Below, piece by piece: positions 26,303 through 43,081 of a stretch of 64,000 bases of DNA. This DNA comes from Bacteroidota bacterium. Lineage in GTDB: Bacteria; Bacteroidota; JABWAT01. The DNA lies in NCBI GenBank assembly GCA_017303995.1, contig JAFLBE010000007.1, positions 26,163 to 90,162 on the forward strand. The letters run 5' to 3'. A model generated the notes under the pieces. That model did not search any database. It had not been told where the DNA came from and saw only the letters and a list, made by a program, of their open reading frames with translations. The position numbers and the translations under genes were made by a program. The first letter of the stretch is position 1, and each line of letters opens with the position of its first letter.

Positions 26303-27892
26303 ATGATTTTTATATCTGATTTTCTTGTTATCGGAAGCGGAATTGCCGGACTCAGTTATGCACTGAAAGCTGCAAAACACGGCACTGTTCATGTCATAAC
26401 CAAAAAAGATTCAGCTGAGTCTAGCACAAACTACGCTCAGGGTGGCATCGCTGCTGTTTTCTCGCCTACTGATACCTTTGACTCCCATATTCAGGATACG
26501 TTGATTGCCGGCGATGGTCTTTGTGATCTTGAAGCGGTTACTCAGCTCGTGAAAGAAGGCCCGGAACGGATCAACGAACTCATCGAGATCGGCGTTAAAT
26601 TTTCTGAACGCAATGGTGAAATTGAACTTGTGAAAGAGGGTGGGCATTCCATCCACCGGATTCTTCATGCAAAAGATCTTACCGGTAAGGAAATTGAACG
26701 GGCTTTACTTGCTGCAACAACAGAAGATGAGTCGATTCAGGTTTTTGAACACCGTCAAGCTATTGATCTTATCACCGAACATCACTCTGGCGGCGTTATG
26801 AAAGACGGTCATCCAACCTGTTTTGGTGCCTATGTATTAAATCCGGATTCGGGTAAAATTGATATATTTCTCTCAAAAATTACATATTTGTGTACAGGTG
26901 GTGCTGGTCAGGTTTATTTGCACACAACAAACCCAGGAATTGCAACTGGTGACGGAATTGCAATGGCTCATCGTGCCGGAGCGACAGTTGGTAACCTTGA
27001 ATTTATGCAATTTCATCCAACAAGCCTGTATTCAAAAACAAGAAAACGGTTTTTGATTTCAGAAGCAGTAAGAGGGCACGGTGCCATTCTCAGGAATAAA
27101 ACCGGTGAACGGTTTATGGAAAAGGTTGATCCACGTCTTGAACTGGCAACCCGTGATATTGTTGCACGTGCAATTGACCGTGAGATGAAGCAAAGTGGTG
27201 ATGATTATGTTTTACTTGATCTTTCCAGTCTGCCCGCTGAAGATATTAAAGACCATTTCCCGAATATCTTTCAAACCTGTCTGAAAGAGGGAATTGACAT
27301 TACCAAAGAACCCATCCCAGTCGTTCCTGCTGCACATTATATGTGTGGTGGCGTTAAGTGTGATCTTGACGGTAAAACAGCGATCCGGAACTTATATGTT
27401 GGTGGAGAAACTGCTTTCACCGGTGTTCACGGCGCAAACCGGCTTGCTTCAAACTCACTTCTTGAAGCGGTTGTCTGGGCTCACCGCTCAGTTGAAGATG
27501 CGGTAAAAGTTTTACCTGACCTTCACTTTCAAACCCGGAAAATTCCCGAGTGGGATGACAAGGGAACTACAAATGCTGAAGAATGGATCCTTGTTTCTCA
27601 TAGTTTTAATGAAATCAAAACAATAATGTGGGATTATGTCGGGATTGTAAGAAGTAACCTTCGTTTGGAACGTGCTCAAAGGCGAATTGCTTTTCTCAGT
27701 AAAGAAGTTGATGAATTTTACCGGAGAACCCGGCTGACCCCTGAAATTGTGGAACTTAGAAATCTGGTTTTGGTTGCCTCACTCATTATTGAATGTGCTT
27801 TTCTGAGGAAAGAAAGCAGAGGACTTCACTTTACAACCGATTTTCCAGGCAAATCAGATGAAAATCCACCAGTAAACACGGTTTTATTGTGA
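26303..27892 (+). CDS. nadB: L-aspartate oxidase
   Basis: FAD-binding VIGSGIAGLSYAL, succinate dehydrogenase/fumarate reductase flavoprotein family, RLELATRDIVARAI. Confidence 0.95.
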   Translation: MIFISDFLVIGSGIAGLSYALKAAKHGTVHVITKKDSAESSTNYAQGGIAAVFSPTDTFDSHIQDTLIAGDGLCDLEAVTQLVKEGPERINELIEIGVKFSERNGEIELVKEGGHSIHRILHAKDLTGKEIERALLAATTEDESIQVFEHRQAIDLITEHHSGGVMKDGHPTCFGAYVLNPDSGKIDIFLSKITYLCTGGAGQVYLHTTNPGIATGDGIAMAHRAGATVGNLEFMQFHPTSLYSKTRKRFLISEAVRGHGAILRNKTGERFMEKVDPRLELATRDIVARAIDREMKQSGDDYVLLDLSSLPAEDIKDHFPNIFQTCLKEGIDITKEPIPVVPAAHYMCGGVKCDLDGKTAIRNLYVGGETAFTGVHGANRLASNSLLEAVVWAHRSVEDAVKVLPDLHFQTRKIPEWDDKGTTNAEEWILVSHSFNEIKTIMWDYVGIVRSNLRLERAQRRIAFLSKEVDEFYRRTRLTPEIVELRNLVLVASLIIECAFLRKESRGLHFTTDFPGKSDENPPVNTVLL

Positions 27893-27969
27893 TTTATTCC
27901 GGATTTTTAATTAGATTGGTTTTATAATTCAAAATCACTTTCTATATTTATGCCTTTGATTTTCCGGAG

Positions 27970-28827
27970 ATGTCAATGTGGACAATGAAAAGCATTCTAG
28001 TTCCAACTGATTTCAGTAGTCATTCTGAACTTGCACTTCGGCAAGCTGAAGCTTTTGCCAAAGTTTATAATGCTCAACTTGAAATTCTTCATGTTACCGA
28101 TTTTGAAAAGGTTGCCAATGATTATACCGGTCACCGGGGATCAAAAGAGAGTCTGATCAAGGTTATTGAGAATGAAGCTGAACTCAAGGTGAACAAGCTC
28201 ATAAAAGAAAGAAACTGGAACGGTTTAAAGGCAATAGGTATTAATATTACCGGCAGTGCAATTGACCGAATTGTTCATGTTGCCAGATCCAGAAAAAGCG
28301 ATGTTGTGCTGATGGCTACCCGCGGGCGTGGTAACGCTACTGATTTCGTACTTGGATCAACAACCTATAAAGTGATCAGAACTGCGCCTTGTCCCGTTTT
28401 ATCCATTCCGAATCCCAAAAACGATTTATCTGTCACTTCTGTTCTGTTTCCAACCGATTTTTCAAATAACTCCTATCTTGGATATGAATATGCGGTTTCG
28501 GTTGCCAAGCAATTTAATTCCAAGCTTCATATTCTGCACATTGTTGATGATAAAACTCCCGATATGGATGTTGTAGAACAAAAATTTACAGCTTTAAAAT
28601 CAGCTGCCCATGCTGAAGGGGTTTTAAACGTCAACTCTACTATTGCCAAAGACCGGGATGCCAGCGATGGAATTAAAAACTTCGTGGACAAAAGCGGAAT
28701 TGATTTTATTGTGATTGCAACACATGGTCACGGCGGGGTCAAACAATATTTTCTGGGTTCGACAACAGTTGATGTTATTACAAGATCTCAGGTTCCAGTT
28801 TTACTGATCAGACAAATGGAATACTAA
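27970..28827 (+). CDS. Universal stress protein, tandem UspA domains
   Basis: Two UspA repeats, each with ILVPTDFS...HV... and a G-x2-G-x9-G-S ATP motif (VLGSTTYKVI / FLGSTTVDVI). Confidence 0.8.
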   Translation: MSMWTMKSILVPTDFSSHSELALRQAEAFAKVYNAQLEILHVTDFEKVANDYTGHRGSKESLIKVIENEAELKVNKLIKERNWNGLKAIGINITGSAIDRIVHVARSRKSDVVLMATRGRGNATDFVLGSTTYKVIRTAPCPVLSIPNPKNDLSVTSVLFPTDFSNNSYLGYEYAVSVAKQFNSKLHILHIVDDKTPDMDVVEQKFTALKSAAHAEGVLNVNSTIAKDRDASDGIKNFVDKSGIDFIVIATHGHGGVKQYFLGSTTVDVITRSQVPVLLIRQMEY

Positions 28828-30443
28828 ACCAGGAAAACGGGATTCGTAAACGCAATCAACGGATCTTGTGATCGCTGATAATAAAAATCTCCCAATTTTC
28901 CTTCAACCTCAATTCTGAAGTACAGGCTTCCTTCCGGAAGCCTGATTCCGGAAAAATCAAGTTCGAAATCTAAGCAATTTGCTTCCGGAACTTTAACCCT
29001 AACTTCAATCTCCTGCCCAGTTGTTCCAAAATAAATTCTCACTTCTTCAATTGAACCAAATTCACCCGTTGTTTTGGTTTTTAATACTATCGTTTTAAAC
29101 CGTTCTGCTCCTAATTCTGATCCAAACAGGAGATCAGGAATCTTTTCCGTTTTTAAAAGAAGAGCAATGCCGTTTGTCAGATAAGAATGACCCGCTTTCA
29201 ATGCAGACAGAATGCTTTGTTCATTCTTTTCCTGAGATTGAACTACCGTCCTGAATTTTCCAAACCAGTGAGAATCCTTTTCAGTGATTGAAAAAAAAGG
29301 AAGCTTTATTTGTCTGACCCGATTGAAATTGCCATGGGAATCATTTCCTCCACCAATTAGTGTTCGGTTTCCGGCAAGCAGAAAATGAATCCAGATTTGC
29401 CGGGATTTTTGAAAAGCTTCACCTAACCACCCATTTAATATCTGCAAAGGAATTTGGGTGGTGAGCAAATCATGTTCAGTGTAAATTCCCCGGTTTAAAG
29501 TTAATTTTTCTGGCGTTGACGGGGTCTCAAAAGGGTGAGCAGCAAAGGCAGTTGTTTGCGGATCTAGCCGTCCAAGAGCCTCACTCAAAGTTGTTTCGGG
29601 TTTTGTTTTAAACGGAATTTCACCGCCGTCTCCCGATCCGTGAATAAAAGTGGTTTGCCCAAGTAAAAGCAGGTGAACATTTTCACCGGATTGATTTCCG
29701 GTACTTAACTCAAAGCCAGGAATTAAAAGAGTACCGTCCTTTTGCCCGTTTAATTCAGAAACTTCTTTATTGAATTGTTTCCACTTTTCAAGTTCCGGAT
29801 CCTGTTTTAAATAGTTATCCGGAAGATCATCAAGATCATAAGAGTGATCAGTCAGACAAAGAAAATCGTAACCCAAAACATTTGCTGCTGATTTTGAAAG
29901 TGGAATTCCGCCCCCAAATTCAACCTGATCAAAGGTATACCGGGTATGATGATGAAGATCGCCATGTTGCTGATTTAAAAACTTTGGAAAAGGTTCAGAT
30001 GAAACCCAGACTGTAAACGGTTTTTTGGAAGTTGACCGGTAATTATCAGATACTGCATGAAATGATTTATTACGGTTTTTGCCTATTAATTCTGCACTTA
30101 TTTCCCACTTACCCGATTGGGTGAGCAGAATCGGAAAAATCTGTTCATAATAATTGGATGAAATTTCTGCATCAACATTAAAATAAAAATTTTCCCTGAC
30201 GTCAAGTAATGAATGGTAGCAAGTAAAGGTGACTGAAGAAATTTGAATCGGGAATAGATGTGCATCGTTGATGAGCAGAAATATGGGTAACTTTCCTTCT
30301 GGTTCTGTTCTTACCGGCATATCAAAAATGATTTCAGGTTCACGACGGAAGAGCCGGCTTGGTAAAAGGGGAATTCTGAAATGAATTTCAGCATATCCAA
30401 TAAGCGGAAATCCAATTGTAAGCAGCCAGAGAAGTTCGGTCAT
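28824..30443 (-). CDS. Secreted/membrane-anchored PHP-domain metal-dependent phosphoesterase-like protein with extra N- and C-terminal domains
   Basis: PHP-like motif series GDLHHHT, CLTDHSY, AAHPF, GGGNDSHG. Hydrophobic N-terminus. Assignment is by motif reading only. Confidence 0.5.
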   Translation of the reverse strand: MTELLWLLTIGFPLIGYAEIHFRIPLLPSRLFRREPEIIFDMPVRTEPEGKLPIFLLINDAHLFPIQISSVTFTCYHSLLDVRENFYFNVDAEISSNYYEQIFPILLTQSGKWEISAELIGKNRNKSFHAVSDNYRSTSKKPFTVWVSSEPFPKFLNQQHGDLHHHTRYTFDQVEFGGGIPLSKSAANVLGYDFLCLTDHSYDLDDLPDNYLKQDPELEKWKQFNKEVSELNGQKDGTLLIPGFELSTGNQSGENVHLLLLGQTTFIHGSGDGGEIPFKTKPETTLSEALGRLDPQTTAFAAHPFETPSTPEKLTLNRGIYTEHDLLTTQIPLQILNGWLGEAFQKSRQIWIHFLLAGNRTLIGGGNDSHGNFNRVRQIKLPFFSITEKDSHWFGKFRTVVQSQEKNEQSILSALKAGHSYLTNGIALLLKTEKIPDLLFGSELGAERFKTIVLKTKTTGEFGSIEEVRIYFGTTGQEIEVRVKVPEANCLDFELDFSGIRLPEGSLYFRIEVEGKLGDFYYQRSQDPLIAFTNPVFLV

Positions 30444-30509
30444 CCGTAGGGTCAGGTTTTAATAAGTGAGCAATAAATTGTATATTTCCGAAAATATAGG
30501 ATTTACGAA

Positions 30510-31139
30510 ATGGGCAAACAAGTCATTATCATTGATCATCCCCTAATTAAGAGAAATATTTCAATTTTAAGGGATAAAACGACGCCGGTAAATCAATTCC
30601 GTGATACCGTGACTGAACTTTCTACTCTGATGGCGTACGAAGTCACCAAGGATATTAATGTTCAGACTTATGAAATTCATACCCCACTTGAAAAAACGGA
30701 GGGGTATTTCGTTTCTGATCAGATTGTAATCATTCCTATTCTAAGAGCCGGTTTGGGTATTTTAGATGGATTTTTGAAATTTCTGCATGAAGCACGGGTT
30801 GGAATGTTAGGGTTATACAGAGACCACCGTACTCATGAACCCGTAGAGTATTATTCAAACATTCCTTCTGGTATCGAAAACTCAGTGGTAATTTTAATTG
30901 ATCCCATGCTTGCAACCGGTGGCAGTGCCATCATGGCTGTAGATTATTTGAAAAAGCTTGGTGCAAAAAAGATAAAATTTGTTTGTCTGATTGCTGCTCC
31001 AGAGGGTATTGAAGCTTTTCATACCAAACATCCATCAGTTCCGGTGTTTACTGCTTCTGTTGACAGGTGTCTGAATCACAATAAATACATTCTTCCGGGT
31101 CTGGGTGATGCGGGTGATCGTTTTTTTGGTACAATGTAA
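30510..31139 (+). CDS. upp: Uracil phosphoribosyltransferase
   Basis: IIDHPLIKRNISILRDK N-terminus, PRPP-binding ILIDPMLATGGS. 209 aa. Confidence 0.95.
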   Translation: MGKQVIIIDHPLIKRNISILRDKTTPVNQFRDTVTELSTLMAYEVTKDINVQTYEIHTPLEKTEGYFVSDQIVIIPILRAGLGILDGFLKFLHEARVGMLGLYRDHRTHEPVEYYSNIPSGIENSVVILIDPMLATGGSAIMAVDYLKKLGAKKIKFVCLIAAPEGIEAFHTKHPSVPVFTASVDRCLNHNKYILPGLGDAGDRFFGTM

Positions 31140-31161
31140 CTAACTGCAATTTTTTTTAAAA

Positions 31162-31572
31162 TCAATCTATAATCACTGGGGTTATTTGAATTGCATGAAC
31201 TGGTGGCAGATAATCTTTAGCCATCAGGTAACAAACCGCAAATAAAGCAGCATCATCAATCTGACCCACAATTGGATAAAAATCGGGACTTAGTTCTATA
31301 GGCTGGTAGATAAAAAAAAGTGTAAAAATGATCGCTTCAATAACCGGAAAGGGAACATCCTTTCTTTTACCCTGATTGTAATCTTTTACCAGTTTGAGTA
31401 CATTATCCAATTCCGGAATCCAATCCTGAAATTTAGAATGGTGACTCAGTATCGTCCTGATACGCTCCTCATTTTCCGTAATTCTGTGAATATCTTCAGG
31501 TTTTATTCGTTTTGAATTCCGGGTAATAAAATCAGGACTAATCCGGGTTAAATACTGGTTGAAATCATTCAT
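31162..31572 (-). CDS. DUF1232/YkvA-family small membrane protein
   Basis: LSPDFYPIVGQIDDAALFAVCYLMA matches the DxIPDFIPxxGxxDD signature of DUF1232. Confidence 0.5.
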   Translation of the reverse strand: MNDFNQYLTRISPDFITRNSKRIKPEDIHRITENEERIRTILSHHSKFQDWIPELDNVLKLVKDYNQGKRKDVPFPVIEAIIFTLFFIYQPIELSPDFYPIVGQIDDAALFAVCYLMAKDYLPPVHAIQITPVIID

Positions 31573-31835
31573 AATTGCTCTGTCTGTGTAGTTTCGATTG
31601 CGATTTGATGTAAAGTTAATAAAAACATAGATTTTGAAACAGAGATGTAAAAAGAATTAACAGATATCTAATCAATACTGAATTATCATGTTGATCCTTG
31701 GAAATTAAGCTGACATTTCATATATTAATCAAATTCGTAGTATAATGTTTCATAAGTACAGGATTTTAAAGGGTTTTGACTCTGTTTAGCAGGTATTACC
31801 CAAAGTCATTTTCTGTGCAAATTTCGGGATCAAAA

Positions 31836-33209
31836 ATGAAGTTTTGGATAAAAAACAGTTTGGTTATTTTACTGGCAGGAATTCTTGTTGTTCCTGTTTC
31901 AGCCAAGTCAGCCAAAAGCAGAAAATCTGCTCCTGCTGTTCCGAAACTATCCTCTTTTCGTATTGATGATGTATATACCGACAGTATTAAATATCAAATC
32001 GTTGCCGATTTACTTGATAAAACACTTCGCCAAAAGGCTTACCGCAAAACCCGTTTTGGTATTCAGATTCAGGATGAATTGGGTAACCCTGTTTTCAGCC
32101 TGAACTCAAATTTTAAACTTAAGCCTGCCTCGACCCTTAAAATTGTTACCACTGCCGTTGCACTGGAAAAACTAGGACCAGATTTCCGTTATAAAACGGT
32201 AATTTCAACTGATGGTGAACTTGAAAATGGCATTCTTGATGGCAACCTGATTATTCACGGAACCGCTGACCCGCAACTATCCGGTTATTTCGATGGTGAA
32301 GTCATTTCAATCACTTCTGCCTGGGCCAATCAGATTCAGGAAATGGGTATTTCAAAAATTACAGGTTCTGTTTTCCTCGACAATTCCTACTACGCTGATG
32401 AAAACGGTAATGTCAAAACCAGGTTTGTTACAGTTGCCATGTTTGATCAGGCTGCAAAAAGCCAGCTTACCCAAACTGTAAAAAACAAAAAGGGTAAAGA
32501 AGTTAAAAGAAAAATTCGCCTCAGACGGTCTTCTTCCAGAAAACTTGTTCAAGTGAATATGAATCAATATCTCGGCAACTTGTTAACTTCAGAACTATAC
32601 AAAAGAAATCTGATTGAAACCAAAGAAGCTGAAACTGACTTTGACCTGCCAAAAGACATCCATCTTTCTGCACTTATTGTTCATGAGTCTGACCCATTAA
32701 GTGAGATCATCACCAGAACCAACAAGAAAAGTGATAACTTTTATGCTGATCAACTGGTTAGAACGCTCGGATATGAATTTTTGGGGACAGGAAATATTGA
32801 AGCGGGAATCAGAGTTATTGAAGGGTTTCTTCGTTTTCACATGAACATCAATGAATCAGAATATGATATGACAGACGGTTCTGGCCTAAGTCATGATAAT
32901 CAAATGTCAGCCAAAGTGCTGACCCGGATTCTGTCTTATATGTCAACTTCTACGCCAAACCGTGATTATTTTTACAACTCTCTTTCCATTCCAACTGTTG
33001 ACGGAACGCTTGCCAACCGCATCCACCATCCACTTGCAGAAAACATGAGAGGGAAAACCGGTTCAATCTCGGGCGTTGTAAGTCTAACGGGTTACATTTC
33101 GAGTAACTCAGGGAAAAATCTGGTTTTCAGTATTATGTGCAATGGCGGAAGTTCACGCAGGCTTAAATCTCTGGAAGATGAAATCTGTAAGTTATTGCTG
33201 AACCTTTGA
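31836..33209 (+). CDS. dacB: D-alanyl-D-alanine carboxypeptidase/endopeptidase (PBP4, peptidase S13)
   Basis: Signal peptide, ASTLK active-site serine motif, SDN-like motif (KKSDNFYAD), KTG (RGKTGS). The start was moved to MKFWIKN. Confidence 0.8.
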   Translation: MKFWIKNSLVILLAGILVVPVSAKSAKSRKSAPAVPKLSSFRIDDVYTDSIKYQIVADLLDKTLRQKAYRKTRFGIQIQDELGNPVFSLNSNFKLKPASTLKIVTTAVALEKLGPDFRYKTVISTDGELENGILDGNLIIHGTADPQLSGYFDGEVISITSAWANQIQEMGISKITGSVFLDNSYYADENGNVKTRFVTVAMFDQAAKSQLTQTVKNKKGKEVKRKIRLRRSSSRKLVQVNMNQYLGNLLTSELYKRNLIETKEAETDFDLPKDIHLSALIVHESDPLSEIITRTNKKSDNFYADQLVRTLGYEFLGTGNIEAGIRVIEGFLRFHMNINESEYDMTDGSGLSHDNQMSAKVLTRILSYMSTSTPNRDYFYNSLSIPTVDGTLANRIHHPLAENMRGKTGSISGVVSLTGYISSNSGKNLVFSIMCNGGSSRRLKSLEDEICKLLLNL

Positions 33210-33250
33210 TCCACTTGAGTTAAATTCCCAACAGGTTGCATTTCCACACT

Positions 33251-33299
33251 GTCATCCCCGTGAAGACGGGATAATGAAGTTCTGCGAAGCCATCCCGTA
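33251..33299. repeat. TGTCATCC-family element: GTCATCCCCGTGAAGACGGGAT plus an AAGTTCTGCGAAGCC module inside an ACGGGAT/ATCCCGT hairpin
   Basis: Read directly. The AAGTTCTGCGAAGC module is also at 58068-58082 and, as AGTTCTGCGATGCC, at 8878-8891. Confidence 0.65.
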
Positions 33300-33488
33300 T
33301 TAAGAGCATTGATCCAAGATCCCCAAAACGTTCGGGGTAAGCTAAGTCTCCAGGTTTCACCGGATCCGCGGTTCGTAAACGAACCTTGGACGGGAAGACA
33401 TCTGATTCAGAATCCTAATTGCATACCTATTTTCTCGCTTACCTTTAGTTCTAACTAACCTCTTAATCCCTATAACCCATTTTTCTTG

Positions 33489-34292
33489 CTACTGCTGATT
33501 TTCCATGGCAGGCTTATCAATTTCACGGTATTCAAAGCGGTGATGATATTGTCTTGTTGCTTTAATTCCTGACCGGTAATCGATCATTTCAAGAAAACTC
33601 TTTCCTGTTATCTTTTTTGATAACTTCAATAAAGGTGATCCAGAATTTGCATCAAAAAGTTCGACAAAATAATTCAAAGAATCAGTAGCTGTTTTAATAT
33701 TAACGGTAAATGGATTCAAGTATTTCAAAGAGTCTGTATTCATATCAAGTAAAGTAACTTCTTTACCGCCAGGGAACCCATTTTTCAGATAAACATTCCA
33801 CTTTGATAAAAATCGGGTATCTACAAGAAAGGTGTCAGGTAATTCCTGCTTCGTTTCATTTACAAATTCTTCACGGATTTTATTCCGGCTGCGCATAAAA
33901 TTCTCCTGAAAGGATGCATAGAGTCCGTTTGACAAAACACTGTCATTGCCGGTCCATCTTGATGTGTCCATTCTGAAAACTTCAAAATGACTCCAAATGT
34001 GCCTTCTCGTGGTTGAATCTGTTACAAGCCGGTAACCCGAATGCACAGAAGTGTCTCCGGGGTGCTTAAACCGAATTTCAAAATAGTCATAATTTCCAGC
34101 TTTGTAATATTGGTAAAGTTCAGTTCCTACGGTGTCTCCTTCAAGATTGGTGATCAGGTAAGAGGCTTCCTGTTCAAGCCACAAAGAAGGTAGTTTGAAA
34201 GTATAAGGAACACCAACATTTTTTAGATTATATATGATAAGGAAAGCAATACCCATTAAAACGAGAATCGAAACCCTGATAATGTATTTCAT
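33489..34292 (-). CDS. Hypothetical N-terminally anchored/exported protein
   Basis: 267-aa ORF with an N-terminal TM/signal segment and no recognisable motif. It is convergent with dacB. Confidence 0.5.
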   Translation of the reverse strand: MKYIIRVSILVLMGIAFLIIYNLKNVGVPYTFKLPSLWLEQEASYLITNLEGDTVGTELYQYYKAGNYDYFEIRFKHPGDTSVHSGYRLVTDSTTRRHIWSHFEVFRMDTSRWTGNDSVLSNGLYASFQENFMRSRNKIREEFVNETKQELPDTFLVDTRFLSKWNVYLKNGFPGGKEVTLLDMNTDSLKYLNPFTVNIKTATDSLNYFVELFDANSGSPLLKLSKKITGKSFLEMIDYRSGIKATRQYHHRFEYREIDKPAMENQQ

Positions 34293-34574
34293 GATTTAAA
34301 CCAGACAACTAATAAAATAAATGGCAAAGTTAATTAAAACAGACGACTTTTCACTGTGAACATGCGGGATGGAGATCTGATTCCCTATTTTTTCAAATTG
34401 AATTTAAATGCAGTTAAATTTTGTATTTTGGTCAAATGTCAAAACTTTACTTTTTAAAGTTTCAAAAATCAGAATAATAATTTGTGATAATGGATAAATG
34501 ACAAATATAATATTGTGTTATGATCCAAATCGACGAAAAGAAGGGATTAAAACTGAGAAAAAACGGAGATGTTT

Positions 34575-34603
34575 GTTGACATGCTGAGAATCCTTTCTTA
34601 TTA
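34575..34603 (+). promoter_or_regulatory. Sigma-70-like promoter TTGACA-N17-TATTAT(TG) for the ilv-leu leader
   Basis: ttgaca at 34575-80, 17-nt spacer, tattat at 34598-603. Same TATTATTG extended -10 as the cys promoter at 76-104. Confidence 0.45.
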
Positions 34604-34655
34604 TTGCCTAAGCAATTAAGAAAAACACGACAACAACTTTACTTTCTTAAACAAT

Positions 34656-34799
34656 ATGAACCATATGCAAACATACTCTTCCGCAATACCGGTCGACTCC
34701 GCATATGGAAATTCATTGCCCTATTTTATCAACCTACCGAACCTTCTGCTTCTTGTGGGCCTTACTATTCTACTTCTTGGTATTATTACCCTGAAATAA
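34656..34799 (+). promoter_or_regulatory. Candidate branched-chain-amino-acid leader peptide (47 aa: MNHMQTYSSAIPVDSAYGNSLPYFINLPNLLLLVGLTILLLGIITLK) upstream of ilvB
   Basis: My own translation; the ORF is below the track's size cut-off. 15 of the last 18 codons are Leu/Ile/Val. It starts ~50 nt after the promoter, and a ggtcagcct...aggctgacc hairpin (34809-34855) follows. Confidence 0.4.
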
Positions 34800-35128
34800 G
34801 AACATAGTGGTCAGCCTGCATAACCCGATTTAACAACAAAACAAAAAGGCTGACCAGCCTGAAGAACCAGCCGGAACGGCAGACCCAGATTTCATTTTTG
34901 AACTGAGGTTTTTATGTTTGACTGGATGTTTGTTTCACCTGATTCCTGCAAACGAATGCAGAATGAAGATTTGTTTTGCCCCGCCCGGCATTCCAGATCT
35001 GCCTGCTATTCTTCCCCAAGTATTTCTGCATTAAACATCCCGGTTCAGACTTCAGCCACACTTCCCGATTTTATTTTTCAATTATCAAATAGCCTGTTAA
35101 GCAGCGTAAATAATCAACGGAGTCAAGT

Positions 35129-36856
35129 ATGAGCCAGACACACCGTGAAATGAACGGAGCCGAAATTTTTCTGGAATCACTTAGAAAAGAGGGCGTGGAT
35201 ATCATTTTTGGATATCCGGGCGGAGCTGTTCTAGGGATTTATGATAAACTTTATGACTGTGATTTTATCCACCACATCCTGGTTCGTCATGAGCAGGGAG
35301 CTGCACATATGGCAGAAGGTTATGCAAAAGCAACCGGGAAAGTCGGCGTAGTACTGGTGACTTCAGGTCCGGGTGCAACCAACACAGTTACAGGAATTGC
35401 TGATGCTTATATGGATTCAATTCCCATCGTGGTTTTTACGGGTCAGGTTCCGTCAAAATTGATTGGAAATGATGCTTTTCAGGAAGCTGATATTGTCGGA
35501 ATCACCCGTCCAATCACCAAACACAATTTTCTCGTTCGTGAAGTTGATGAACTCGCTTCTACGATTAAAAAAGCATTTTTCATTGCTTCAACAGGACGGC
35601 CTGGTCCTGTTCTGGTTGATATGCCCAAAGATATGCTGGCTAAAATTACCAAGTTTATCTATCCGGATCATGTTGAAATCCGGGGTTACAAACCCACCTA
35701 TTCGGGACATTCCCAGCAAATCAAAAAAGCAGCAAATGCGTTAAGAAAAGCAAAACGCCCGCTTCTTTATGTTGGCGGCGGTGTTGTGATGTCAAATGCA
35801 GACCGTGAACTCACTTTGCTTGCCCGTGAAACCGGCATCCCGGTCACGATGACCCTTCAGGGGTTGGGTTCCTTCCCGATGACAGATGATTTGTCTCTGG
35901 GCATGTTGGGCATGCATGGTACTTTCTGGGCGAACATGGCTACTGAAAATTGTGATCTTCTGATTTCTCTGGGTGCCCGTTTTGATGATCGGGTGACAGG
36001 AAATACAGAAACTTTTGCAAAAGATGCCTATAAAATCCAGGTTGATATTGATCCGACTGCAATTGACAAAAATGTTAAAGTTGATCTGCCGATTGTGGGT
36101 GACCTTAAAAATGTTCTGGCTGAACTTCTCACCGAATTGGCTGAAAAACCGGTTACAACAGATTTTACAGACTGGTGGTCGATGATCACCAAGTGGAAGG
36201 ATGCATGTCCGCTTGAATTTGAAAATTCTGATGGCAAACTTCGTGCACAATATGTGCTTCAGCGGTTATCCAAAATGACTAAAGGTGAAGCAGTAGTGGT
36301 CACCGATGTGGGTCAGCATCAGATGTGGACGACCCAATGGTACGAATTCAACCATCCGCGGTCACACATCACTTCCGGAGGACTGGGAACCATGGGATTT
36401 TCAGTTCCGGCAGCAATTGGTGCAGCTTTTGCGATTAAAGACCGTCCGGTTATTTCAATTTCCGGTGATGGCGGATTTCAGATGAATATGCAGGAGCTGA
36501 TAACGGCTGCTGCGTATAAACTTCCCATCAAATTTATCATTCTGAATAACAGTTTTCTGGGAATGGTTCGCCAATGGCAGGATTTGTTCTACAAGGAAAA
36601 ATACAGTTTTACTGATTTGTCAAAAACAAATCCGAACTTTGTAAAAGTTGCAGAAGCTTTCGGTTGCAAAGCCATGTCTACAGACAATCCGGCAGAAGTT
36701 GACGGGTTGATCAATGAAATGATGGAATATAATGACGGACCTGTTCTGGTTGAATTTAAGGTGGTGAAAGAGGAGATGGTGTTCCCGATGGTTCCGTCGG
36801 GTGGTTCCATACGTGACATCATGGTAAAGCGTCTTGATCCGAACCGGCTCGTTTAA
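35129..36856 (+). CDS. ilvB: Acetolactate synthase large subunit (TPP-dependent)
   Basis: TPP enzyme domains and GDGGFQMN thiamine-binding motif. 575 aa. Confidence 0.95.
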   Translation: MSQTHREMNGAEIFLESLRKEGVDIIFGYPGGAVLGIYDKLYDCDFIHHILVRHEQGAAHMAEGYAKATGKVGVVLVTSGPGATNTVTGIADAYMDSIPIVVFTGQVPSKLIGNDAFQEADIVGITRPITKHNFLVREVDELASTIKKAFFIASTGRPGPVLVDMPKDMLAKITKFIYPDHVEIRGYKPTYSGHSQQIKKAANALRKAKRPLLYVGGGVVMSNADRELTLLARETGIPVTMTLQGLGSFPMTDDLSLGMLGMHGTFWANMATENCDLLISLGARFDDRVTGNTETFAKDAYKIQVDIDPTAIDKNVKVDLPIVGDLKNVLAELLTELAEKPVTTDFTDWWSMITKWKDACPLEFENSDGKLRAQYVLQRLSKMTKGEAVVVTDVGQHQMWTTQWYEFNHPRSHITSGGLGTMGFSVPAAIGAAFAIKDRPVISISGDGGFQMNMQELITAAAYKLPIKFIILNNSFLGMVRQWQDLFYKEKYSFTDLSKTNPNFVKVAEAFGCKAMSTDNPAEVDGLINEMMEYNDGPVLVEFKVVKEEMVFPMVPSGGSIRDIMVKRLDPNRLV

Positions 36857-36877
36857 GTCATGGAAACAGGTAAACCT

Positions 36878-37393
36878 ATGAAAAAAATTATATCCGTATT
36901 AGTTGAAAACAAATTTGGCGCTTTGAACCGGGTTGCAACCATGTTCAGTGGCCGTGGCTTCAATATCCATTCCATTTCCATCGGGGTTACTGAAGATCCT
37001 GAAGTATCACGGATGACGATTGTGACTTCCGGTGAAGCAAACATTCTTGATCAGGTTATCAAGCAATTAAACCGGCTTATTGATATTATTAAAGTGATCG
37101 ATTTGTCTGCAGAACATCATGTTGCCCGTGAACTTGCCATGATTTCAGTGAATTACCAGAAGGGAATCCGTTCTGAAATTATGAATATCTGCGAAGTCTT
37201 TCAGGGAAAAGTCGTTGATATCACCATCAAGTCCATTACGATCGAAGTTACCGGACCGCCTGATAAAATCGATGCCATTATCAATATGTTAACTCCTTAC
37301 GGAATCAAAGATGTTGCCCGTTCAGGACTTGTTGCCCTGAAAAGAGAAGAACAAATTATTATCAAACCGAAAAAAGAAGTCACCATTTCGTGA
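36878..37393 (+). CDS. ilvN: Acetolactate synthase small (regulatory) subunit, ACT domain
   Basis: ISVLVENKFGALNRVATMFSGRGFNI ACT motif. The start is at MKKII (aggt 7 nt upstream); the alternative is M36860. Confidence 0.85.
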   Translation: MKKIISVLVENKFGALNRVATMFSGRGFNIHSISIGVTEDPEVSRMTIVTSGEANILDQVIKQLNRLIDIIKVIDLSAEHHVARELAMISVNYQKGIRSEIMNICEVFQGKVVDITIKSITIEVTGPPDKIDAIINMLTPYGIKDVARSGLVALKREEQIIIKPKKEVTIS

Positions 37394-37439
37394 TTGCTTC
37401 TTGAAAACTCAATTTTAAACAAACAACGAAGGACAACCC

Positions 37440-38456
37440 ATGAAAGTGTATTACAGTGATGACGCCTCCCTTGATAATCTTAAAGGGAAAAAAGTTGCCG
37501 TTATCGGTTTCGGAAGTCAGGGACACGCACATTCCCTGAACCTGATGGACAGCGGAATGAATGTTACCGTTGGATTACGGAAAGAAAGTGCAAGCTGGGC
37601 AAAAGCTGAAGCTGCCGGTCTTGCTGTAAAAACAGTTTCTGATGCTTCTGCATGGGCCGATATCATCATGATTTTGCTTCCTGATCAGACTCAAAAAGCT
37701 GTTTATGATGCTGAAATTGCACCTCACTTGACTGCCGGAAAAACCCTGGCTTTTGCACACGGATTCAATATTCACTTCAAGGTTATTGTTCCTCCCGCAA
37801 ATGTGAACGTGATCATGATTGCACCCAAAAGCCCCGGTCACCTGGTTCGCCGTACTTACGTTCAGGGCAATGGTGTTCCTTGTTTGATTGCTATTCATCA
37901 GGATGCAACCGGCAATGCTTTGGCTTTGGCTTTGGCCTGGTCAAAGGGAATTGGCGGAACCTTCGCTGGTGTAATTGAAACTACTTTCAAAGATGAAACT
38001 GAAACTGATTTGTTTGGCGAGCAGGCTGTTCTTTGCGGCGGATCTGCAGAAATCATCAAAGCAGGTTTTGAGACTCTGGTTGAAGCAGGTTACCCAGCTG
38101 AACTGGCTTATTTCGAATGTATGCACGAACTGAAACTGATCGTTGACCTGTATTATGAAGGCGGACTTACCCGCATGAACTATTCAGTTTCTGATACCGC
38201 AGAATATGGTGGAATGACCCGCGGACCACGTCTGGTTACCGGCGAAACCAAAAAAGAAATGAAGAAAATTCTGGAAGAAATCCAATCCGGCCAATTTGCA
38301 AAAGAATTTTTGGCTGAAACCAATGGCGACAAAGCCAATTTTGAAAAGCTCCGGAAAGAAAACCGTGAACATCCGATTGAAAAAGTTGGAACCAAACTTC
38401 GCGGAATGATGAGCTTCCTGTTCAAAAAAGACAAACGTGAAGAAGTAGGCGTTTAA
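37440..38456 (+). CDS. ilvC: Ketol-acid reductoisomerase (class I)
   Basis: [20 protein letters not shown] motif, [11 protein letters not shown]. 338 aa. Confidence 0.95.
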
Positions 38457-38462
38457 TAACCA

Positions 38463-38634
38463 GTGACAAGTTACAAGTGACAAGTTACAAGTGGTAAGTT
38501 ATAAGTGACAAATTACAGGTTACGGGTGACACGAGAATAAAAACTCCCCTCCTTTTTAAGGAGGGGAAATCAGTCGTAAGACTGATGGGGTGGTTCGGTC
38601 TTTGGCCCACGTCCCATGTCCCCTGTCACTTGTC
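38463..38634. repeat. 172-bp composite intergenic element: left heptamer array 4 (10 units), CCCCTCC hairpin, right inverted heptamer array (MITE-like terminal inverted arrays)
   Basis: Left array GTGACAA GTTACAA ... GTGACAC (38463-38532). Hairpin CCCCTCCTT-ttt-AAGGAGGGG (38546-66). Right array GTCCCAT GTCCCCT GTCACTT GTCACCA (38607-34) is in inverse orientation. Confidence 0.65.
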
Positions 38635-38662
38635 ACCAGCATTTTAAAAGAAAGCAAGTTCA

Positions 38663-39760
38663 ATGAATTATAAGATTGTGGTCCTGCCCGGTGATGGAAT
38701 CGGACCTGAAGTTGTAGAAGCCTCCATTCCGGTCATGACCGAAGTTGGAAAAAAATTTGGCGTCAGTTTTGATTTTGATGTTCGTCTTTTTGGCGGATGC
38801 AGTTTTGATAAGTTCGGTGAGCCGGTAACTGTTGAAACACTCAGTGCCTGTGCAAACGCTGATGCCGTTCTGCTTGGTGCAGTTGGCGGACCGAAATGGG
38901 AATCACTTCCTCATGATAAAAAACCGGAAGCCGGTCTTCTGAAACTCAGAAAATCACTTGAACTCTATGCCAATATTCGTCCAGCCCGGGTTTACACCGG
39001 TCTTGCAGAAGGTTCAACACTGAAGAAGGAAGTTATTGCCGGCGTTGATCTAGTTGTTGTACGTGAATTAACTGGCGGATTGTATTTCGGTCAACCCCGG
39101 GGTATGACTGAAGACAAAGGCTGGAATACCATGGCCTACACCAAAGATGAAATCATCCGGATTGCAAAATCAGCTTTTGAACTTGCAAAAAAACGCAGAA
39201 AAACACTTTGTTCAGTAGATAAAGCCAATGTACTTGAAGTTTCCCAATTTTGGCGGAATGTGGTTCTTGAAGTTGCCCGTGATTATCCGGATGTTAAACT
39301 CAGCCACATGTATGTTGATAATGCCGCCATGCAATTAGTGCGAAATCCGGCCCAGTTTGACGTCATCCTGACCGAAAACATGTTCGGTGATATTCTCAGT
39401 GATATTGCTTCGATGATTCCCGGAAGTCTGGGTATGTTGCCTTCAGCATCACTTGGAACCAAATATGCGTTGTATGAACCCGTTCACGGTTCTGCACCTG
39501 ATATTGCCGGACAAAACAAAGCCAACCCCATTGCAACTATTGCTTCCATCGGAATGCTTTTTGATAACAGTCTCGGTATGCATATCGCCAGCGATTATAT
39601 TCAGAAATCCATTGAAAAAACACTTGAGCAAGGTTATCGGACCGCCGATATTTATTCTGAGGGAACCACACTTCTCGGTACGAAGGAAATGGCAGAAAAA
39701 GTAAAAGAATCCTTCCTTCAGATTTTTGAAGAACAGCCTTACGGATTTGCAGTAGCCTGA
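38663..39760 (+). CDS. leuB: 3-isopropylmalate dehydrogenase
   Basis: Isocitrate/isopropylmalate dehydrogenase family; NMFGDILSD signature. 365 aa. Confidence 0.95.
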
Positions 39761-39791
39761 TTTCATTCATTAACTAAAACACGATACGACC

Positions 39792-41387
39792 ATGGCAGAA
39801 AAAATCATCATCTTCGACACCACCCTGAGGGACGGCGAACAATCCCCGGGTGCATCTTTGAACGTGTACGAAAAGGTGGAGATCGCCCGTCAGCTAGAAC
39901 GTATGAAAGTTGATGTGATTGAAGCCGGTTTCCCGGTTTCGTCACCAGCTCAGTTCGAAGCGGTTCAACGGATAGCAGATCAATCCACTGTGACGATTGC
40001 CGGTCTATGCCGTGCGGTTGAAAAAGATATTCTTGTTGCTTCTGATGCACTTAAAAATGCTAAAAAGAAACGGATTCATACTTTTTCAAGCACTTCTGAT
40101 ATTCATATTCTCGGGAAATTCGGTGATAACCGTTATGGGGTTTCACTTGATGAAAAACGTCAGACTGTCCTGAAAATGTCGGTTGATGCAGTGAAATATG
40201 CAAAAACATTCACACAGGATGTTGAGTATTCTGCTGAAGATGCTGGCAGGACGGATATCGGATATTTGTGCGATGTTATCGAAGCCGTGATTGCAGCCGG
40301 AGCTACAACTGTCAATATCCCGGATACAACCGGTTATTGTATGCCTCTGGAATTCGGGGCAAAAATTGCCGAACTGAAACGCCGTGTGAAAAATATTGAC
40401 CAGGCGGTTATTTCAGTCCATTGCCATAATGATCTTGGGCTGGCAGTTGCCAATTCGCTGTCTGCCATTTCAAACGGTGCCCGTCAGGTTGAATGTACGA
40501 TCAACGGAATCGGTGAACGTGCAGGCAATGCGTCCATGGAAGAAATCGTTATGGCATTGAAAGTCAGGAAAGATCTCTGGGCATTTTACACCGATATTAT
40601 CTCCGAAGAAATTTCCAATTCGTCAAAAATGGTTTCCGGTTTTACCGGGATGATCATTCAGCCTAATAAAGCTATTGTAGGTGATAATGCTTTTGCCCAT
40701 GAATCTGGTATTCATCAGGATGGCATGCTGAAAAACCGGGATACTTACGAGATCATGAAGCCGGAAGATGTGGGTATCACCCATAACCGTATTGTTCTGG
40801 GTCGACATTCCGGACGTCATGGCCTGGTTGCCAGAATGAAAGCTTTGGGTTACGAATTGTCTCCGGCAGAGCTTGACGAGATTTACGAAAAATTCCTTGT
40901 CATTGCAGACCGCAAAAAAGAAGTTTATGACGAAGATCTTCGGGTTCTGATGGGCGAAGAAGTCCAGAAACAATACGAAGAACAATATTATCAGCTCGAT
41001 TATCTGCAGGTGACTCTGGGAACTTCAATAATTCCGACTGCCACGGTTCGGGTAAAAGCGAAAGACAAAATTATTCAGGAATCGTCCGTTGGTGACGGAC
41101 CCGTTGATGCCGCCTATAAAGCAGTTGAACGTGCACTGAAAATTCATGTAAATATCGAAAATTACCAGGTCAGGTCGGTAACCGGTGGCCGTGATGCTGT
41201 TGGTGAAGTGATTATCAGAATCAGGGATGCTGGAAAAGCCTTTACCGGAAAGGGAAATTCAACTGATATCGTTGAAGCTTCAGTTCGTGCATTTTTGAAT
41301 GCCCTGAACCACAAAAAACAATTTGAAAAAGACCGTCAGGAACAAACAGAAAATATCTGGCAGGATAATCCGGTCAGGTTTGTTTGA
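39792..41387 (+). CDS. leuA: 2-isopropylmalate synthase (long form with LeuA dimerisation/regulatory domain)
   Basis: FDTTLRDGEQSPG, HCHNDLGLAVANSL, and a C-terminal LeuA allosteric domain. 531 aa. Confidence 0.9.
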   Translation: MAEKIIIFDTTLRDGEQSPGASLNVYEKVEIARQLERMKVDVIEAGFPVSSPAQFEAVQRIADQSTVTIAGLCRAVEKDILVASDALKNAKKKRIHTFSSTSDIHILGKFGDNRYGVSLDEKRQTVLKMSVDAVKYAKTFTQDVEYSAEDAGRTDIGYLCDVIEAVIAAGATTVNIPDTTGYCMPLEFGAKIAELKRRVKNIDQAVISVHCHNDLGLAVANSLSAISNGARQVECTINGIGERAGNASMEEIVMALKVRKDLWAFYTDIISEEISNSSKMVSGFTGMIIQPNKAIVGDNAFAHESGIHQDGMLKNRDTYEIMKPEDVGITHNRIVLGRHSGRHGLVARMKALGYELSPAELDEIYEKFLVIADRKKEVYDEDLRVLMGEEVQKQYEEQYYQLDYLQVTLGTSIIPTATVRVKAKDKIIQESSVGDGPVDAAYKAVERALKIHVNIENYQVRSVTGGRDAVGEVIIRIRDAGKAFTGKGNSTDIVEASVRAFLNALNHKKQFEKDRQEQTENIWQDNPVRFV

Positions 41388-41533
41388 GGTTACGGGTCAC
41401 AGATAACGGGTCACAGGTTAATGTGTGAAATTCCCCTCCTTTTATAAAGGAGGGGTGGCGAAGCCGGGGTGGTTTTGTTTTGGGTTTAGATAATAACTAA
41501 ACCTCCCCTAGCCCCTCCTTTGAAAAAGGAGGG
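41388..41533. repeat. Composite intergenic element: heptamer array 5 (GGTTACG GGTCACA GATAACG GGTCACA GGTTAAT GTGTGAA) plus two CCCCTCC hairpins
   Basis: Array 41388-41429. Hairpins CCCCTCCTTTTA-taa-AGGAGGGG (41433-55) and CCCTCCTTT-gaaa-AAGGAGGG (41513-33). It lies in the 250-bp leuA-leuC spacer. Confidence 0.65.
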
Positions 41534-41637
41534 AAATCTTCTCCAAAAAGCTAACAGCCAATAGCTAATAGATTTCATTTTACACCTTAACCCTTATGCC
41601 TTAACCCTATTTATATAACAAAAGGAAAGCTTCTCAA

Positions 41638-42933
41638 ATGGGAATGACCATCACAGAAAAAATCCTTGCAAAAGCTGCAGGAAAAAGCCGGGTAACTCCG
41701 GGTGAAAGTGTTTGGCTGAGTGTTGACGTTTTAATGACCCACGATGTGTGCGGTCCACCCACGATCGACATCTGGAAAAGAGAGTTTGGACCGGAAGCAA
41801 AAATCTGGGACAAAGAAAAACTCGTTATTTTTCCCGATCACTACATTTTTACTGCCAATACCCATGCAATTGCGAATGTTGCAAAACTCCGGGATTTTGC
41901 GAAGGAATATGACCTTCCCAATTATTACGATCCGGGCACAGAACGCTATAAAGGCGTTTGTCACATGGCTTTGGCTGAAGAAGGATACAACGTTCCTGGA
42001 ACTGTTCTTTTCGGAACGGATTCCCACACGTGTACCTCTGGTGCTTTCGGCATGTTTTCAACCGGTGTCGGTAATTCGGATGCGGCCTTTATTCTCGGAA
42101 CCGGAAAAATCTGGGAAAAAGTCCCTGAATCCATGCTGTTCTGGTTTGAAGGTGAAATTCCTCCTTACCTGACCGCCAAAGATATGATTTTACAGATCAT
42201 TGGTGATATTACAACCGATGGTGCAACTTATCGTGCAATGGAATTTGCAGGTCCCGGCGTCATGTCATTACCTATGTCTGAGAGAATGACACTCACTAAC
42301 ATGGCTATTGAAGCCGGTGGTATGAACGGTATTATTGAAGCTGATGAACTGACTGAAGCTTATGTGAAAGCCCGTACCGACAAATCTTACGAGCTGTTCA
42401 AATCAGATCCGGATGCAACTTACCATTCCAAATACAATTACGATCTGTCTAAAATGGAACCCATGGTTGCAAAACCTCACAGTCCGGATAATAAAGATAC
42501 AGTTCGGAATGTTCAGGGCACCAAACTGACGAAATGTTATATCGGTAGCTGTACAGGCGGAAAATTGGAAGATTTTCAGTTTGCTGCAAAGCTTCTCTTT
42601 GGTCAGACTGTAAAAACACCAACTTATATCGTACCTGCATCTACATGGGTTGATCAGCAACTTGATGTTGAAACTGTAAATGGTGTATCTCTTCGTGAAA
42701 TTTTTGTCAAAGCGGGTTGTACAATCGGTGAATCATCCTGTGCAGCTTGTCTGGGTGGTCCGTCTGATACATTCGGCCGTGCTCAGGACGACGAAGTGAT
42801 TATTTCAACCACCAACCGGAATTTCCCGGGACGGATGGGGAGCAAGAAATCAGCCGTTTATCTGGCTTCAGCATTAACTGTTGCTGCATCTGCGATCCAT
42901 GGTGTGATTACCGATCCACGGGATGTGATGTAA
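41638..42933 (+). CDS. leuC: 3-isopropylmalate dehydratase large subunit (short, archaeal/type-II-like)
   Basis: Aconitase-family Fe-S ligand cysteines (CIGSCTGG, ESSCAACLGG). 431 aa. Confidence 0.9.
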   Translation: MGMTITEKILAKAAGKSRVTPGESVWLSVDVLMTHDVCGPPTIDIWKREFGPEAKIWDKEKLVIFPDHYIFTANTHAIANVAKLRDFAKEYDLPNYYDPGTERYKGVCHMALAEEGYNVPGTVLFGTDSHTCTSGAFGMFSTGVGNSDAAFILGTGKIWEKVPESMLFWFEGEIPPYLTAKDMILQIIGDITTDGATYRAMEFAGPGVMSLPMSERMTLTNMAIEAGGMNGIIEADELTEAYVKARTDKSYELFKSDPDATYHSKYNYDLSKMEPMVAKPHSPDNKDTVRNVQGTKLTKCYIGSCTGGKLEDFQFAAKLLFGQTVKTPTYIVPASTWVDQQLDVETVNGVSLREIFVKAGCTIGESSCAACLGGPSDTFGRAQDDEVIISTTNRNFPGRMGSKKSAVYLASALTVAASAIHGVITDPRDVM

Positions 42934-42965
42934 GGAAAGATTTGTTTTAAAATTTGGTTAACGTG

Positions 42966-43060
42966 GATGTCATCCCGGACTTAGCCTGCCCCGAACGCTT
43001 TCGGGGATTCGGGATCCAGTTTTTTTAACAATGGATCCTGACTTTCGTCAGGATGACACA
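42966..43060. repeat. Head-to-head pair of TGTCATCC-family palindromes in the leuC-leuD spacer
   Basis: P1 is GTCATCCCGGAC...CCCCGAAcgctTTCGGGG...CGGGAT (42966-43017). P2 is ATCCTGACtttcGTCAGGATGACAC (43031-43060), whose reverse complement starts TGTCATCCTGAC. They flank a T7 run. Confidence 0.65.
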
Positions 43061-43081
43061 AATCCAAAACAAAGGAAATTT

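Follow-up and report, generated by a model that had tools for sequence, protein, structure and literature searches.

A putative leader-peptide attenuator for branched-chain amino acids ahead of the ilv-leu-cimA-thr operon of a Bacteroidota bacterium, with relatives in Ignavibacteria and Chlorobi

The subject of this report is the region directly upstream of ilvB in a 64,000-nucleotide (nt) stretch of DNA from a Bacteroidota bacterium (contig JAFLBE010000007.1, positions 26,163 to 90,162; hereafter the window, whose own numbering is used throughout). Between positions 34576 and 35129 this region holds a promoter, a 47-codon open reading frame (ORF) whose end is dense in Leu, Ile and Val codons, and a series of RNA hairpins. 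We put a probability of about 0.7 on the reading that it is a ribosome-mediated (leader-peptide) attenuator of the ilvBNC-leuBACD-cimA-thrABC operon. The attenuator would sense charged Leu, Ile and Val tRNA and perhaps Thr tRNA as well. That the leader ORF is translated, that stalling of the ribosome is the signal and which structure serves as the output we infer from the sequence of the window and its relatives. The features on which the argument draws are the following, all on the forward strand.

34576-34581 (+): promoter -35 hexamer, TTGACA, followed by a 17-nt spacer and the extended -10/-7 box
34599-34606 (+): extended -10/-7 box, TATTATTG; the whole promoter covers 34576-34606
34656-34799 (+): leader ORF, 47 codons, MNHMQTYSSAIPVDSAYGNSLPYFINLPNLLLLVGLTILLLGIITLK, recognised from the ORF list, its conservation and its codon bias
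34737-34760 (+): R1, CCGAACCUUCUGCUUCUUGUGGGC, the codons for Pro-Asn-Leu4-Val-Gly, 5' strand of the predicted long-range helix P1
34743-34793 (+): run of Leu, Ile and Val (and Thr) codons inside the leader ORF, LLLLVGLTILLLGIITL
34779-34790 (+): P2, apical hairpin over the Gly-Ile-Ile-Thr codons, GGUAUUAUUACC, predicted in every fold
34809-34855 (+): hairpin H, a 9-bp stem with a 29-nt A/C-rich loop, its 5' arm beginning 9 nt past the stop codon TAA
34809-34817 (+): 5' arm of H, GGTCAGCCT (as RNA, GGUCAGCCU)
34847-34855 (+): 3' arm of H, AGGCTGACC (as RNA, AGGCUGACC)
34857-34879 (+): X, GCCUGAAGAACCAGCCGGAACGG, 3' strand of the predicted P1, just 3' of H
34884-34913 (+): candidate terminator, made of hairpin T (34884-34908; arms CCCAGAUUUCA and UGAACUGAGG) and UUUUU (34909-34913)
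34914-35132 (+): bridging open frame of 72 codons from T to ilvB, its TGA overlapping the ilvB ATG (ATGA)
35129-36856 (+): ilvB, acetolactate synthase large subunit, ATG at 35129, first gene of the controlled cluster

Leu, Ile and Val account for 13 of the last 18 residues of the leader peptide, arranged as LLLL, LLL and II and accompanied by two Thr; an initial annotation of this DNA had counted 15 such codons in the last 18, which is too many. When all ATG-started ORFs of 20-90 amino acids (aa) in the six frames of the window were compared (n = 447), the leader ORF alone reached at least 13 Leu, Ile or Val in its last 18 residues, and no ORF did so in 20 shuffles. The run spells out the products of the operon itself, Leu, Ile, Val and Thr codons standing ahead of an ilv-leu-thr operon. 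The ORF starts 50 nt past the -10 box and ends 329 nt ahead of ilvB, and the cluster beyond it extends from ilvB to thrC at 50060. Pfam assigns to this cluster the eleven genes ilvB, ilvN, ilvC, leuB, leuA, leuC, leuD, a second LeuA/CimA-like gene, thrA, thrB and thrC. The promoter, with its TTGACA-N17-TATTATTG layout, the 47-aa ORF rich in Leu, Ile and Val, the ilvB start at 35129 and the 11-gene ilv-leu-cimA-thr cluster were all found as the initial annotation had described them.

The promoter is the top sigma-70-like match in 26000-45900, agreeing with the consensus at 11/12 positions. It had been described as one of two near-identical copies, and two there are: TTGACA-N15-19-TATTATTG has exactly two matches in the 64 kb, at 76-106 and at 34576-34606, where shuffles lead one to expect 0.01, and the gene set behind the first copy is one for sulfate assimilation (cysH, SUMT, sulfite reductase and a sulfate ABC transporter). 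A special relation between the copies is, however, not needed. The simplest reading of the second copy is that it is one more good match to a consensus common to these genomes, because the same consensus precedes every Ignavibacteria-type leader examined: among related loci, which we designate by L numbers, cTTGACA-N17/18-TAnnTTTGc stands ahead of the leader ORF in L002 and L065 and in the Ignavibacteria-type L001, L003, L004, L070, L085, L087 and L088.

The closest relatives of the window form, together with it, a clade of three lineages, namely the window itself (with L034), L002/L071 and L065-L069, the last seen in Logan assemblies only. The IlvB of the window is identical to that of the metagenome-assembled genome (MAG) "Bacteroidetes bacterium BAC1" (L034) and shares 86% of its residues with that of MAG.504 (L002), 80% with those of L065-L069, 71-76% with those of Ignavibacteria/Melioribacteraceae and about 65% with those of Chlorobi. 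At the position of the leader ORF an in-frame ORF is found in L002/L071 (47 aa; in L002 MTKVLTYPVSIVTDRAPGRLLSVSLTLPNLLLLVGLTVLLLGIITVN) and in L065-L069 (45 aa; in L065 MNQTTTATTSLFNTGIPVAVSGSVTRPTLLLAGLVILLSGIITLG). In the DNA alignment the promoter hexamers are kept across the three lineages, divergence in the N-terminal half of the ORF has left the frame intact and the end rich in Leu, Ile and Val is kept nearly base for base; the comparative alignment proposed with the initial annotation thus finds the branched-chain amino acid (BCAA) codon run conserved in both sister lineages. Between the window and L002 the block from about 34736 to 34911 (175 nt) is near-identical, the loop of hairpin H excepted.

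This conservation goes beyond the peptide. Over the last 22 leader codons, amino acids that the window shares with L002 keep the same codon in 16 of 18 cases and those shared with L065 in 10 of 13, while in ilvB the same-codon rate is 244/470 (52%) relative to L002 and 43% relative to L065; by our own binomial estimate, which is not the output of a tool, leader codons as frozen as this have a probability of about 0.001 given the ilvB background. The conserved residues other than Leu, Ile and Val (Pro, Gly and Thr) coincide with predicted stems. Because the synonymous sites of the leader are frozen relative to ilvB, the leader region is constrained at the RNA level as well as in codon class. 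Frozen sites are what a leader with overlapping structure predicts, and the opposite of what a small protein with synonymous drift would leave. A peptide that was not conserved, frameshifts in relatives or synonymous drift without RNA structure had been named beforehand as outcomes that would speak against a leader peptide, and the comparison comes out in favour of the leader-peptide reading.

Among the RNA elements, hairpin H is well supported. The 9-bp stem pairing 34809-34817 with 34847-34855, noticed in the initial annotation, has a predicted free energy of about -17 to -19 kcal/mol and proves to be conserved with compensatory changes in 10 leaders. In L002 and L065 the stems are kept and the loop is free to vary, and across 11 leaders of the window clade and Ignavibacteria the hairpin starts 3-10 nt past the stop codon and follows the consensus GGUCAaUCCCg ... 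cGGGgUUGACC around a long A-rich loop. In an alignment of 10 leaders, for which the arms of H were picked by hand via GUC and GAC anchors, 89% of the cells are paired and 5 of the 11 pairs have changed on both sides; the covariation score of 0.432, against 0.246 for shuffled alignments, was reached by none of 500 shuffles, and sliding the register lowers the paired fraction to 19-46%. RNAalifold places an equivalent hairpin in 18 Chlorobi sequences, six of which carry a GC-to-UA swap. In our model, a ribosome terminating at the leader stop codon would cover the base of H. The classical trp, leu and ilv attenuators have this same "region 2" geometry, in which a ribosome that has arrived at the stop codon can reach the base of a hairpin. 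On the minus strand, small GC hairpins formed by the 3' arm of H and the bases following it (34860-34847 and 34872-34852), then TTTTGTTTTG, appear as terminator-like hits of our scan; no minus-strand gene ends there.

The same arrangement recurs well beyond the window clade. When the ilvB loci that we had fetched were scanned for small ORFs with windows rich in Leu, Ile and Val, ORFs ending in such residues were found upstream of ilvD-ilvB in 8 Ignavibacteria-type loci (49-73 codons, with ends such as ...IIILGIIIISLLVVVLLIG, ...DILLLGIIISILVLIIIG, ...NLPENIIILGIIIISLLVVVLLIG and ...SLDILLLGIIISILVLIIIG) and in about 22 of 28 Chlorobi loci, again upstream of ilvD-ilvB and typically of the form MP.....RIGILVPVIILQVGILVP. 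At every locus examined the leader ORF lies immediately upstream of ilv genes. The amino-acid class is kept rather than the sequence of the strand, because the runs of Ignavibacteria and Chlorobi use Ile and Val codons (AUU, GUN) and not CUU. Chlorobi leaders are predicted to fold as a classical switch between 1:2/3:4 and 2:3 pairings: without a ribosome, 1:2 forms between the Arg-Ile-Gly codons and the segment behind the stop codon, together with a 3:4 hairpin before a U-rich tract, with a stalled ribosome 2:3 is predicted, and with a ribosome at the stop codon 3:4 again. Alternative 1:2, 2:3 and 3:4 pairings, a check suggested with the initial annotation, are therefore predicted in the Chlorobi relatives, but no clean scheme with a canonical terminator emerges for the window itself. 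The conserved Pro and Gln of the Chlorobi peptides (..VPV...QV..) overlie a hairpin in the coding region, CCUGU...ACAGG (alignment columns 38-63; about 1143-1168 in L011), and these residues seem, on the predicted fold, to be dictated by RNA pairing.

Within the window clade the leader RNA is more stable than its shuffles (z of -3.1 and -3.3), and the minimum free energy (MFE) folds of the window, L002 and L065 each hold P1, P2, H and T. All 12 nt of P2 are identical across the three lineages. P1, the pairing of R1 with X, occurs in the MFE folds of all three and is worth -19 to -21 kcal/mol as a duplex. X is identical between the window and L002 but for one unpaired base, and L065, which has a different sequence at that position, can also pair it with its own stretch of Leu codons; the first bases of X can pair instead with the 3' arm of H (AGGCU:AGCCU). 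Across 10 leaders, cognate P1 strands pair at -15.8 kcal/mol and non-cognate ones at -11.95 kcal/mol (permutation P = 0.00035, a value inflated by the relatedness of the sequences). A pairing of the Leu codons with the downstream segment is suggested by the folding model. True compensatory changes were not found for P1 within the clade, the strands of the window and L065 being cross-compatible in a swap test.

The mechanism that we propose would run as follows. Transcription would begin at the TTGACA/TATTATTG promoter, and a ribosome would translate the 47-codon leader ORF. When BCAAs are plentiful, the ribosome would pass the run LLLLVGLTILLLGIITL, reach the stop codon and sit over the base of H, and after its release the stretch of Leu codons could pair with the segment just 3' of H (P1). 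When BCAAs are scarce, it would stall at the Leu, Ile and Val codons, H would stay closed and the partner strand of P1 would be left free. The fold adopted by the 115 nt of conserved RNA past the stop codon would then set the expression that reaches ilvB, most likely through termination at hairpin T and its U5 tract (34884-34913). A terminator there would agree with the position of T, at which the block shared with L002 comes to its exact 3' end and behind which the window has UUUUU; L065 has an equivalent hairpin.

Several results weigh against this reading, some of them concerning its last step. As regards the sensor, no Shine-Dalgarno sequence precedes the leader ATG, whereas ilvB has GGAG. 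The clade on which the closest comparison rests numbers just three lineages in the collections searched, because a metagenome scan with the conserved 20-base pattern GGTATTATTACC-N10-25-GGTCAGCC returned only one true match, from the same species, beside nine chance matches and no new lineage of the clade. In the window clade P1 is no better than pairings with composition-matched shuffled partners, a non-significant outcome to be expected because a CU-rich strand pairs with a GA-rich strand in any order, and P1 is missing from 4 of the 10 family members. As regards the output, T is weak (-8.9 kcal/mol), and the U-tract behind it is present in the window, L034 and L081 only and absent from L002 and L065. 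In masked folding T is predicted for all three ribosome states (none, stalled, at the stop codon), and neither masked folding nor pairwise duplex energies gave an antiterminator for it, the pairing of X with the 5' arm of T being weaker than -4.5 kcal/mol. Finally, terminator-like sites in 26000-45900 number 20, against 20.1 expected from shuffles; because they are not enriched, intrinsic termination may not be the main mode in this genome region.

The properties of T and of the spacer behind it bring in the main rival, which keeps the same sensor, a leader peptide and a stalling ribosome, and replaces intrinsic termination by translational or polarity control. In this scheme, which we consider unlikely as a whole and yet the most serious of the alternatives, T would hold the GAGG of the frame 34914-35132, the state of the leader would set access to the start at 34914, and ribosomes admitted there would run to the ATGA, hand over to ilvB and shield the spacer from Rho. 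The 3' arm of T does end in a Shine-Dalgarno-like GAGG placed 5 nt ahead of ATG 34914. Open frames lead from T to ilvB in all three lineages: 72 codons in the window, 71 codons with a GTG start, the same limits and the ATGA overlap in L002 (2789-3004), and 15 codons ending TGA|ATG in L065 (2932-2979). Their sequences are unrelated among the lineages, the bridging peptides of the window and L002 being dissimilar (E = 0.27). The Ignavibacteria counterpart of T sits directly against the Shine-Dalgarno sequence and start codon of ilvD, whose stop in turn overlaps the ilvB ATG (ATGA). In L087, L088 and L070 the region with the BCAA codons is a pairing partner for the 5' arm of T. The spacer at about 34989-35068 is C-rich and G-poor, a rut-like (Rho utilization) composition that is among the strongest C-over-G biases of the window ((C-G)/80 = 0.225; for the window as a whole the 99th percentile is 0.175 and the maximum 0.237), and L002 has a similar stretch (about 2885-2960). 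The lack of conservation of the U-tract behind T points the same way.

Against such a relay, the accessibility predicted for the Shine-Dalgarno motif and start hardly changes with the state of the ribosome, remaining at 0.22-0.35 throughout. In L065 only 1 nt separates GAGGG from the ATG, and the C-rich spacer is absent. L088, which also lacks ilvD, has no frame that reaches ilvB, and open frames of about 70 codons each have a chance of about 1-3% of arising, in lineages that are moreover related. We therefore hold termination at T and U5 to be the more likely output. A stronger version, in which the whole branch of Ignavibacteria and the window does without an intrinsic terminator and stalling is relayed via T and its Shine-Dalgarno motif, we regard as doubtful. 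If it were true, the relay would control translation of ilvD in Ignavibacteria and, in the window clade, a frame free of sequence constraint, kept solely so that ribosomes cross the C-rich, Rho-prone spacer and reach the ATGA hand-over at ilvB. An amino-acid attenuator would then have a translational and polarity relay as its output, in a group of phyla without a described example.

There is no ilvD between leader and ilvB in the window clade, nor anywhere in the window, and a search of the spacer for a remnant of it (tblastn with four IlvD proteins) gave nothing significant. In the Ignavibacteria-type L088 (2401-3001) there is likewise no ilvD between leader and ilvB, and the leader, H and the start codons of MRS... 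(GTG AGA TCG) are retained; this loss would be separate from any loss in the window clade.

The two remaining alternatives dispense with the leader peptide altogether. In the first, which we judge to be highly improbable, the region would act as a structured cis-regulatory RNA with a metabolite, a tRNA or a protein as its direct ligand, as in a riboswitch, a T-box or a protein-binding leader, and the ORF would be incidental to a pyrimidine-rich helix strand. The strong nucleotide conservation of the 175-nt block around a variable loop and the predicted multi-helix fold (P1, P2, H and T, with z about -3) would suit such an RNA, and a CU-rich P1 strand is bound to read as Leu codons. Very different sequences, however, keep the ATG, the frame and the position of the stop codon relative to H, and Ignavibacteria and Chlorobi keep the amino-acid class and not the CUU strand. 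Moreover, Rfam release 15 (4227 models) gave no match in the window at the gathering score, nothing relevant in 34400-35250 even at E up to 10 (T-box, ppGpp, S-adenosylmethionine (SAM) and other riboswitches, leader families) and no match at the leaders of 17 related loci. In the second, which is scarcely credible, the ORF would code for a real small hydrophobic protein that crosses the membrane once and is co-transcribed with the operon, and the hairpins would be unrelated features of the mRNA. In its favour, the last 21 residues (LPNLLLLVGLTILLLGIITLK) and their Ignavibacteria equivalents would form a transmembrane helix, and one gene caller predicted a 44-aa version of the ORF (P0001). Against it, the synonymous sites of the ORF are frozen and not drifting, the flanking non-coding stems are equally conserved, the Chlorobi peptides do not resemble a helix, being broken by Pro, Gln and Arg and ending in Pro, and have Pro and Gln codons that form an RNA stem, the ORF is always directly upstream of ilv genes among the loci examined, and a protein search with the 47-aa peptide returned its own copy only.

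Some further observations were made at and around these loci. Between the window and BAC1 the leader (34570-34913) differs by about 2 substitutions and the spacer by about 11, and the DNA at 34400-34570 is very different from L034 2272-2440 despite the 100% identity of IlvB. Inside the operon, the gaps between ilvC and leuB and between leuA and leuC (38456-38663 and 41387-41638) hold heptamer-like tandem repeats (GTGACAAGTTACAAGTGACAAGTTACAAGTGG...) and recurrent GC-rich hairpins, CCCCTCC-N5-7-GGAGGGG, which look like repetitive extragenic palindromic (REP) or miniature inverted-repeat transposable element (MITE) sequences; one of these repeats scores as a minus-strand terminator-like site (38568-38544). 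Behind the promoter copy at 76-106, an ORF at 191-298 (ATG 194), (V)MKLEQVPLTTSEQVTISLNLIFASHYSSRMTCCC, finishes with three Cys codons (TGC TGT TGT TGA) about 100 nt before the cysH/sulfate-assimilation cluster and is a candidate cysteine leader peptide. In its MFE fold the region round the start pairs with a segment past the stop codon, followed by UCCCUUUUUUU; the fold of this leader is no better than those of shuffles (z = 0.48). In Acidobacteria, small ORFs with a run of Ile and Val lie directly upstream of ilvB (L042 2657-2842, L048 2734-2886 and L052 2665-2883) and share a conserved tail ...(A)IRPxxLA(D/E)W(T/A)x after the run, and in Phycisphaeraceae (Phycisphaerae) an ORF with a VVVVVV run does so (L064 2692-2778); these may be separate leader families. 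Two Ignavibacteria loci, L001 (370-486, minus strand) and L004 (677-779, minus strand), carry SAM riboswitches in the orientation opposite to the ilv leader, a few hundred bases ahead of its promoter.

Leader-peptide attenuation is documented mostly in Proteobacteria, Actinobacteria and some Firmicutes. For the ilv leaders of Chlorobi, Ignavibacteria and Bacteroidetes we found no description in the searchable literature, where prior mention by Lopatovskaya et al. 2010 (Mol Biol 44:128) is possible, this being an attenuator survey that reportedly includes the Bacteroidetes/Chlorobi group. The leaders assembled here form a coherent set, with a common promoter, an ORF ending in Leu, Ile and Val and a stop-adjacent hairpin, across Chlorobi, Ignavibacteria and uncultured "Bacteroidetes" lineages, and their ORFs are mostly unannotated. 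Since several gene callers label such ORFs hypothetical proteins, adding the family to Rfam would better the annotation of these genomes. The family also offers a way to approach the regulation of amino-acid genes in green sulfur bacteria and Ignavibacteria, as well as a natural series, from a canonical terminator to no obvious terminator, in which to follow the evolution of the output stages of attenuators. The larger value lies in the family-wide pattern together with the unusual output stage.

In Escherichia coli and Salmonella, ilvL (ahead of ilvGMEDA), ivbL (ahead of ilvBN) and leuL are leader-peptide attenuators whose peptides are of 28-32 aa. The region described here resembles them in having a short ORF with dense Leu, Ile and Val codons between a promoter and a BCAA operon, an RNA stem that starts just past the stop codon and a control that would likewise be multivalent, by Leu, Ile and Val. 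It differs from them in its longer peptide (47 aa), which lacks a Shine-Dalgarno sequence, in the 29-55-nt A-rich loop of its post-stop hairpin, in having no demonstrable mutually exclusive terminator in the window, in the absence of sequence or covariance-model similarity, in phylum and in an operon that adds leu, cimA and thr genes. For the enterobacterial BCAA attenuators PMC10272879 cites Vitreschak et al. 2004. Outside the enterobacteria, comparative genomics identified the Corynebacterium ilvB-II upstream ORF (uORF) and two further motifs, ilvB-OMG and Leptospira ilvB (PMC10272879; PMC11857589). Like these, our leader is a BCAA- and Thr-rich uORF with hairpins upstream of ilvB, in which the length and sequence of the peptide vary and the BCAA codons are kept; they are nevertheless separate RNA families, of other lineages and with other hairpin layouts. 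The window leader belongs to no curated RNA family, having no match in Rfam 15 at any threshold, although that release does not necessarily hold the ilvB-II, ilvB-OMG and Leptospira motifs.

The Bacteroid-trp leader works through a leader peptide. It is listed as a cis-regulatory motif of trp operons for Bacteroidetes (RF01692; Weinberg et al. 2010, PMC2864571) and is distinguished from our leader by its Trp codons, its trp operon and its other structure, and it has no match in the window. A possible analogue for the relay discussed above is the translational attenuation of ermC and cat, with the difference that the signal there is drug-induced and that the Shine-Dalgarno accessibility computed here does not switch. 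In those systems, drug-induced stalling in the leader ORF re-pairs the RNA and frees the Shine-Dalgarno sequence and start. The ilv leaders of Staphylococcus aureus and Listeria, for their part, combine a canonical terminator with additional control by CodY. The Leu-rich attenuator peptide of the S. aureus ilv-leu operon and the Listeria ilv leader (PMC5794164, PMC5864092) resemble the window leader in placing a leader peptide on a long ilv-leu operon outside Proteobacteria and Actinobacteria, and differ from it in belonging to Firmicutes and in their unrelated sequences. By analogy with these systems, the window leader appears to function as the same kind of device as ilvL, ivbL, leuL and the ilvB-II uORF.

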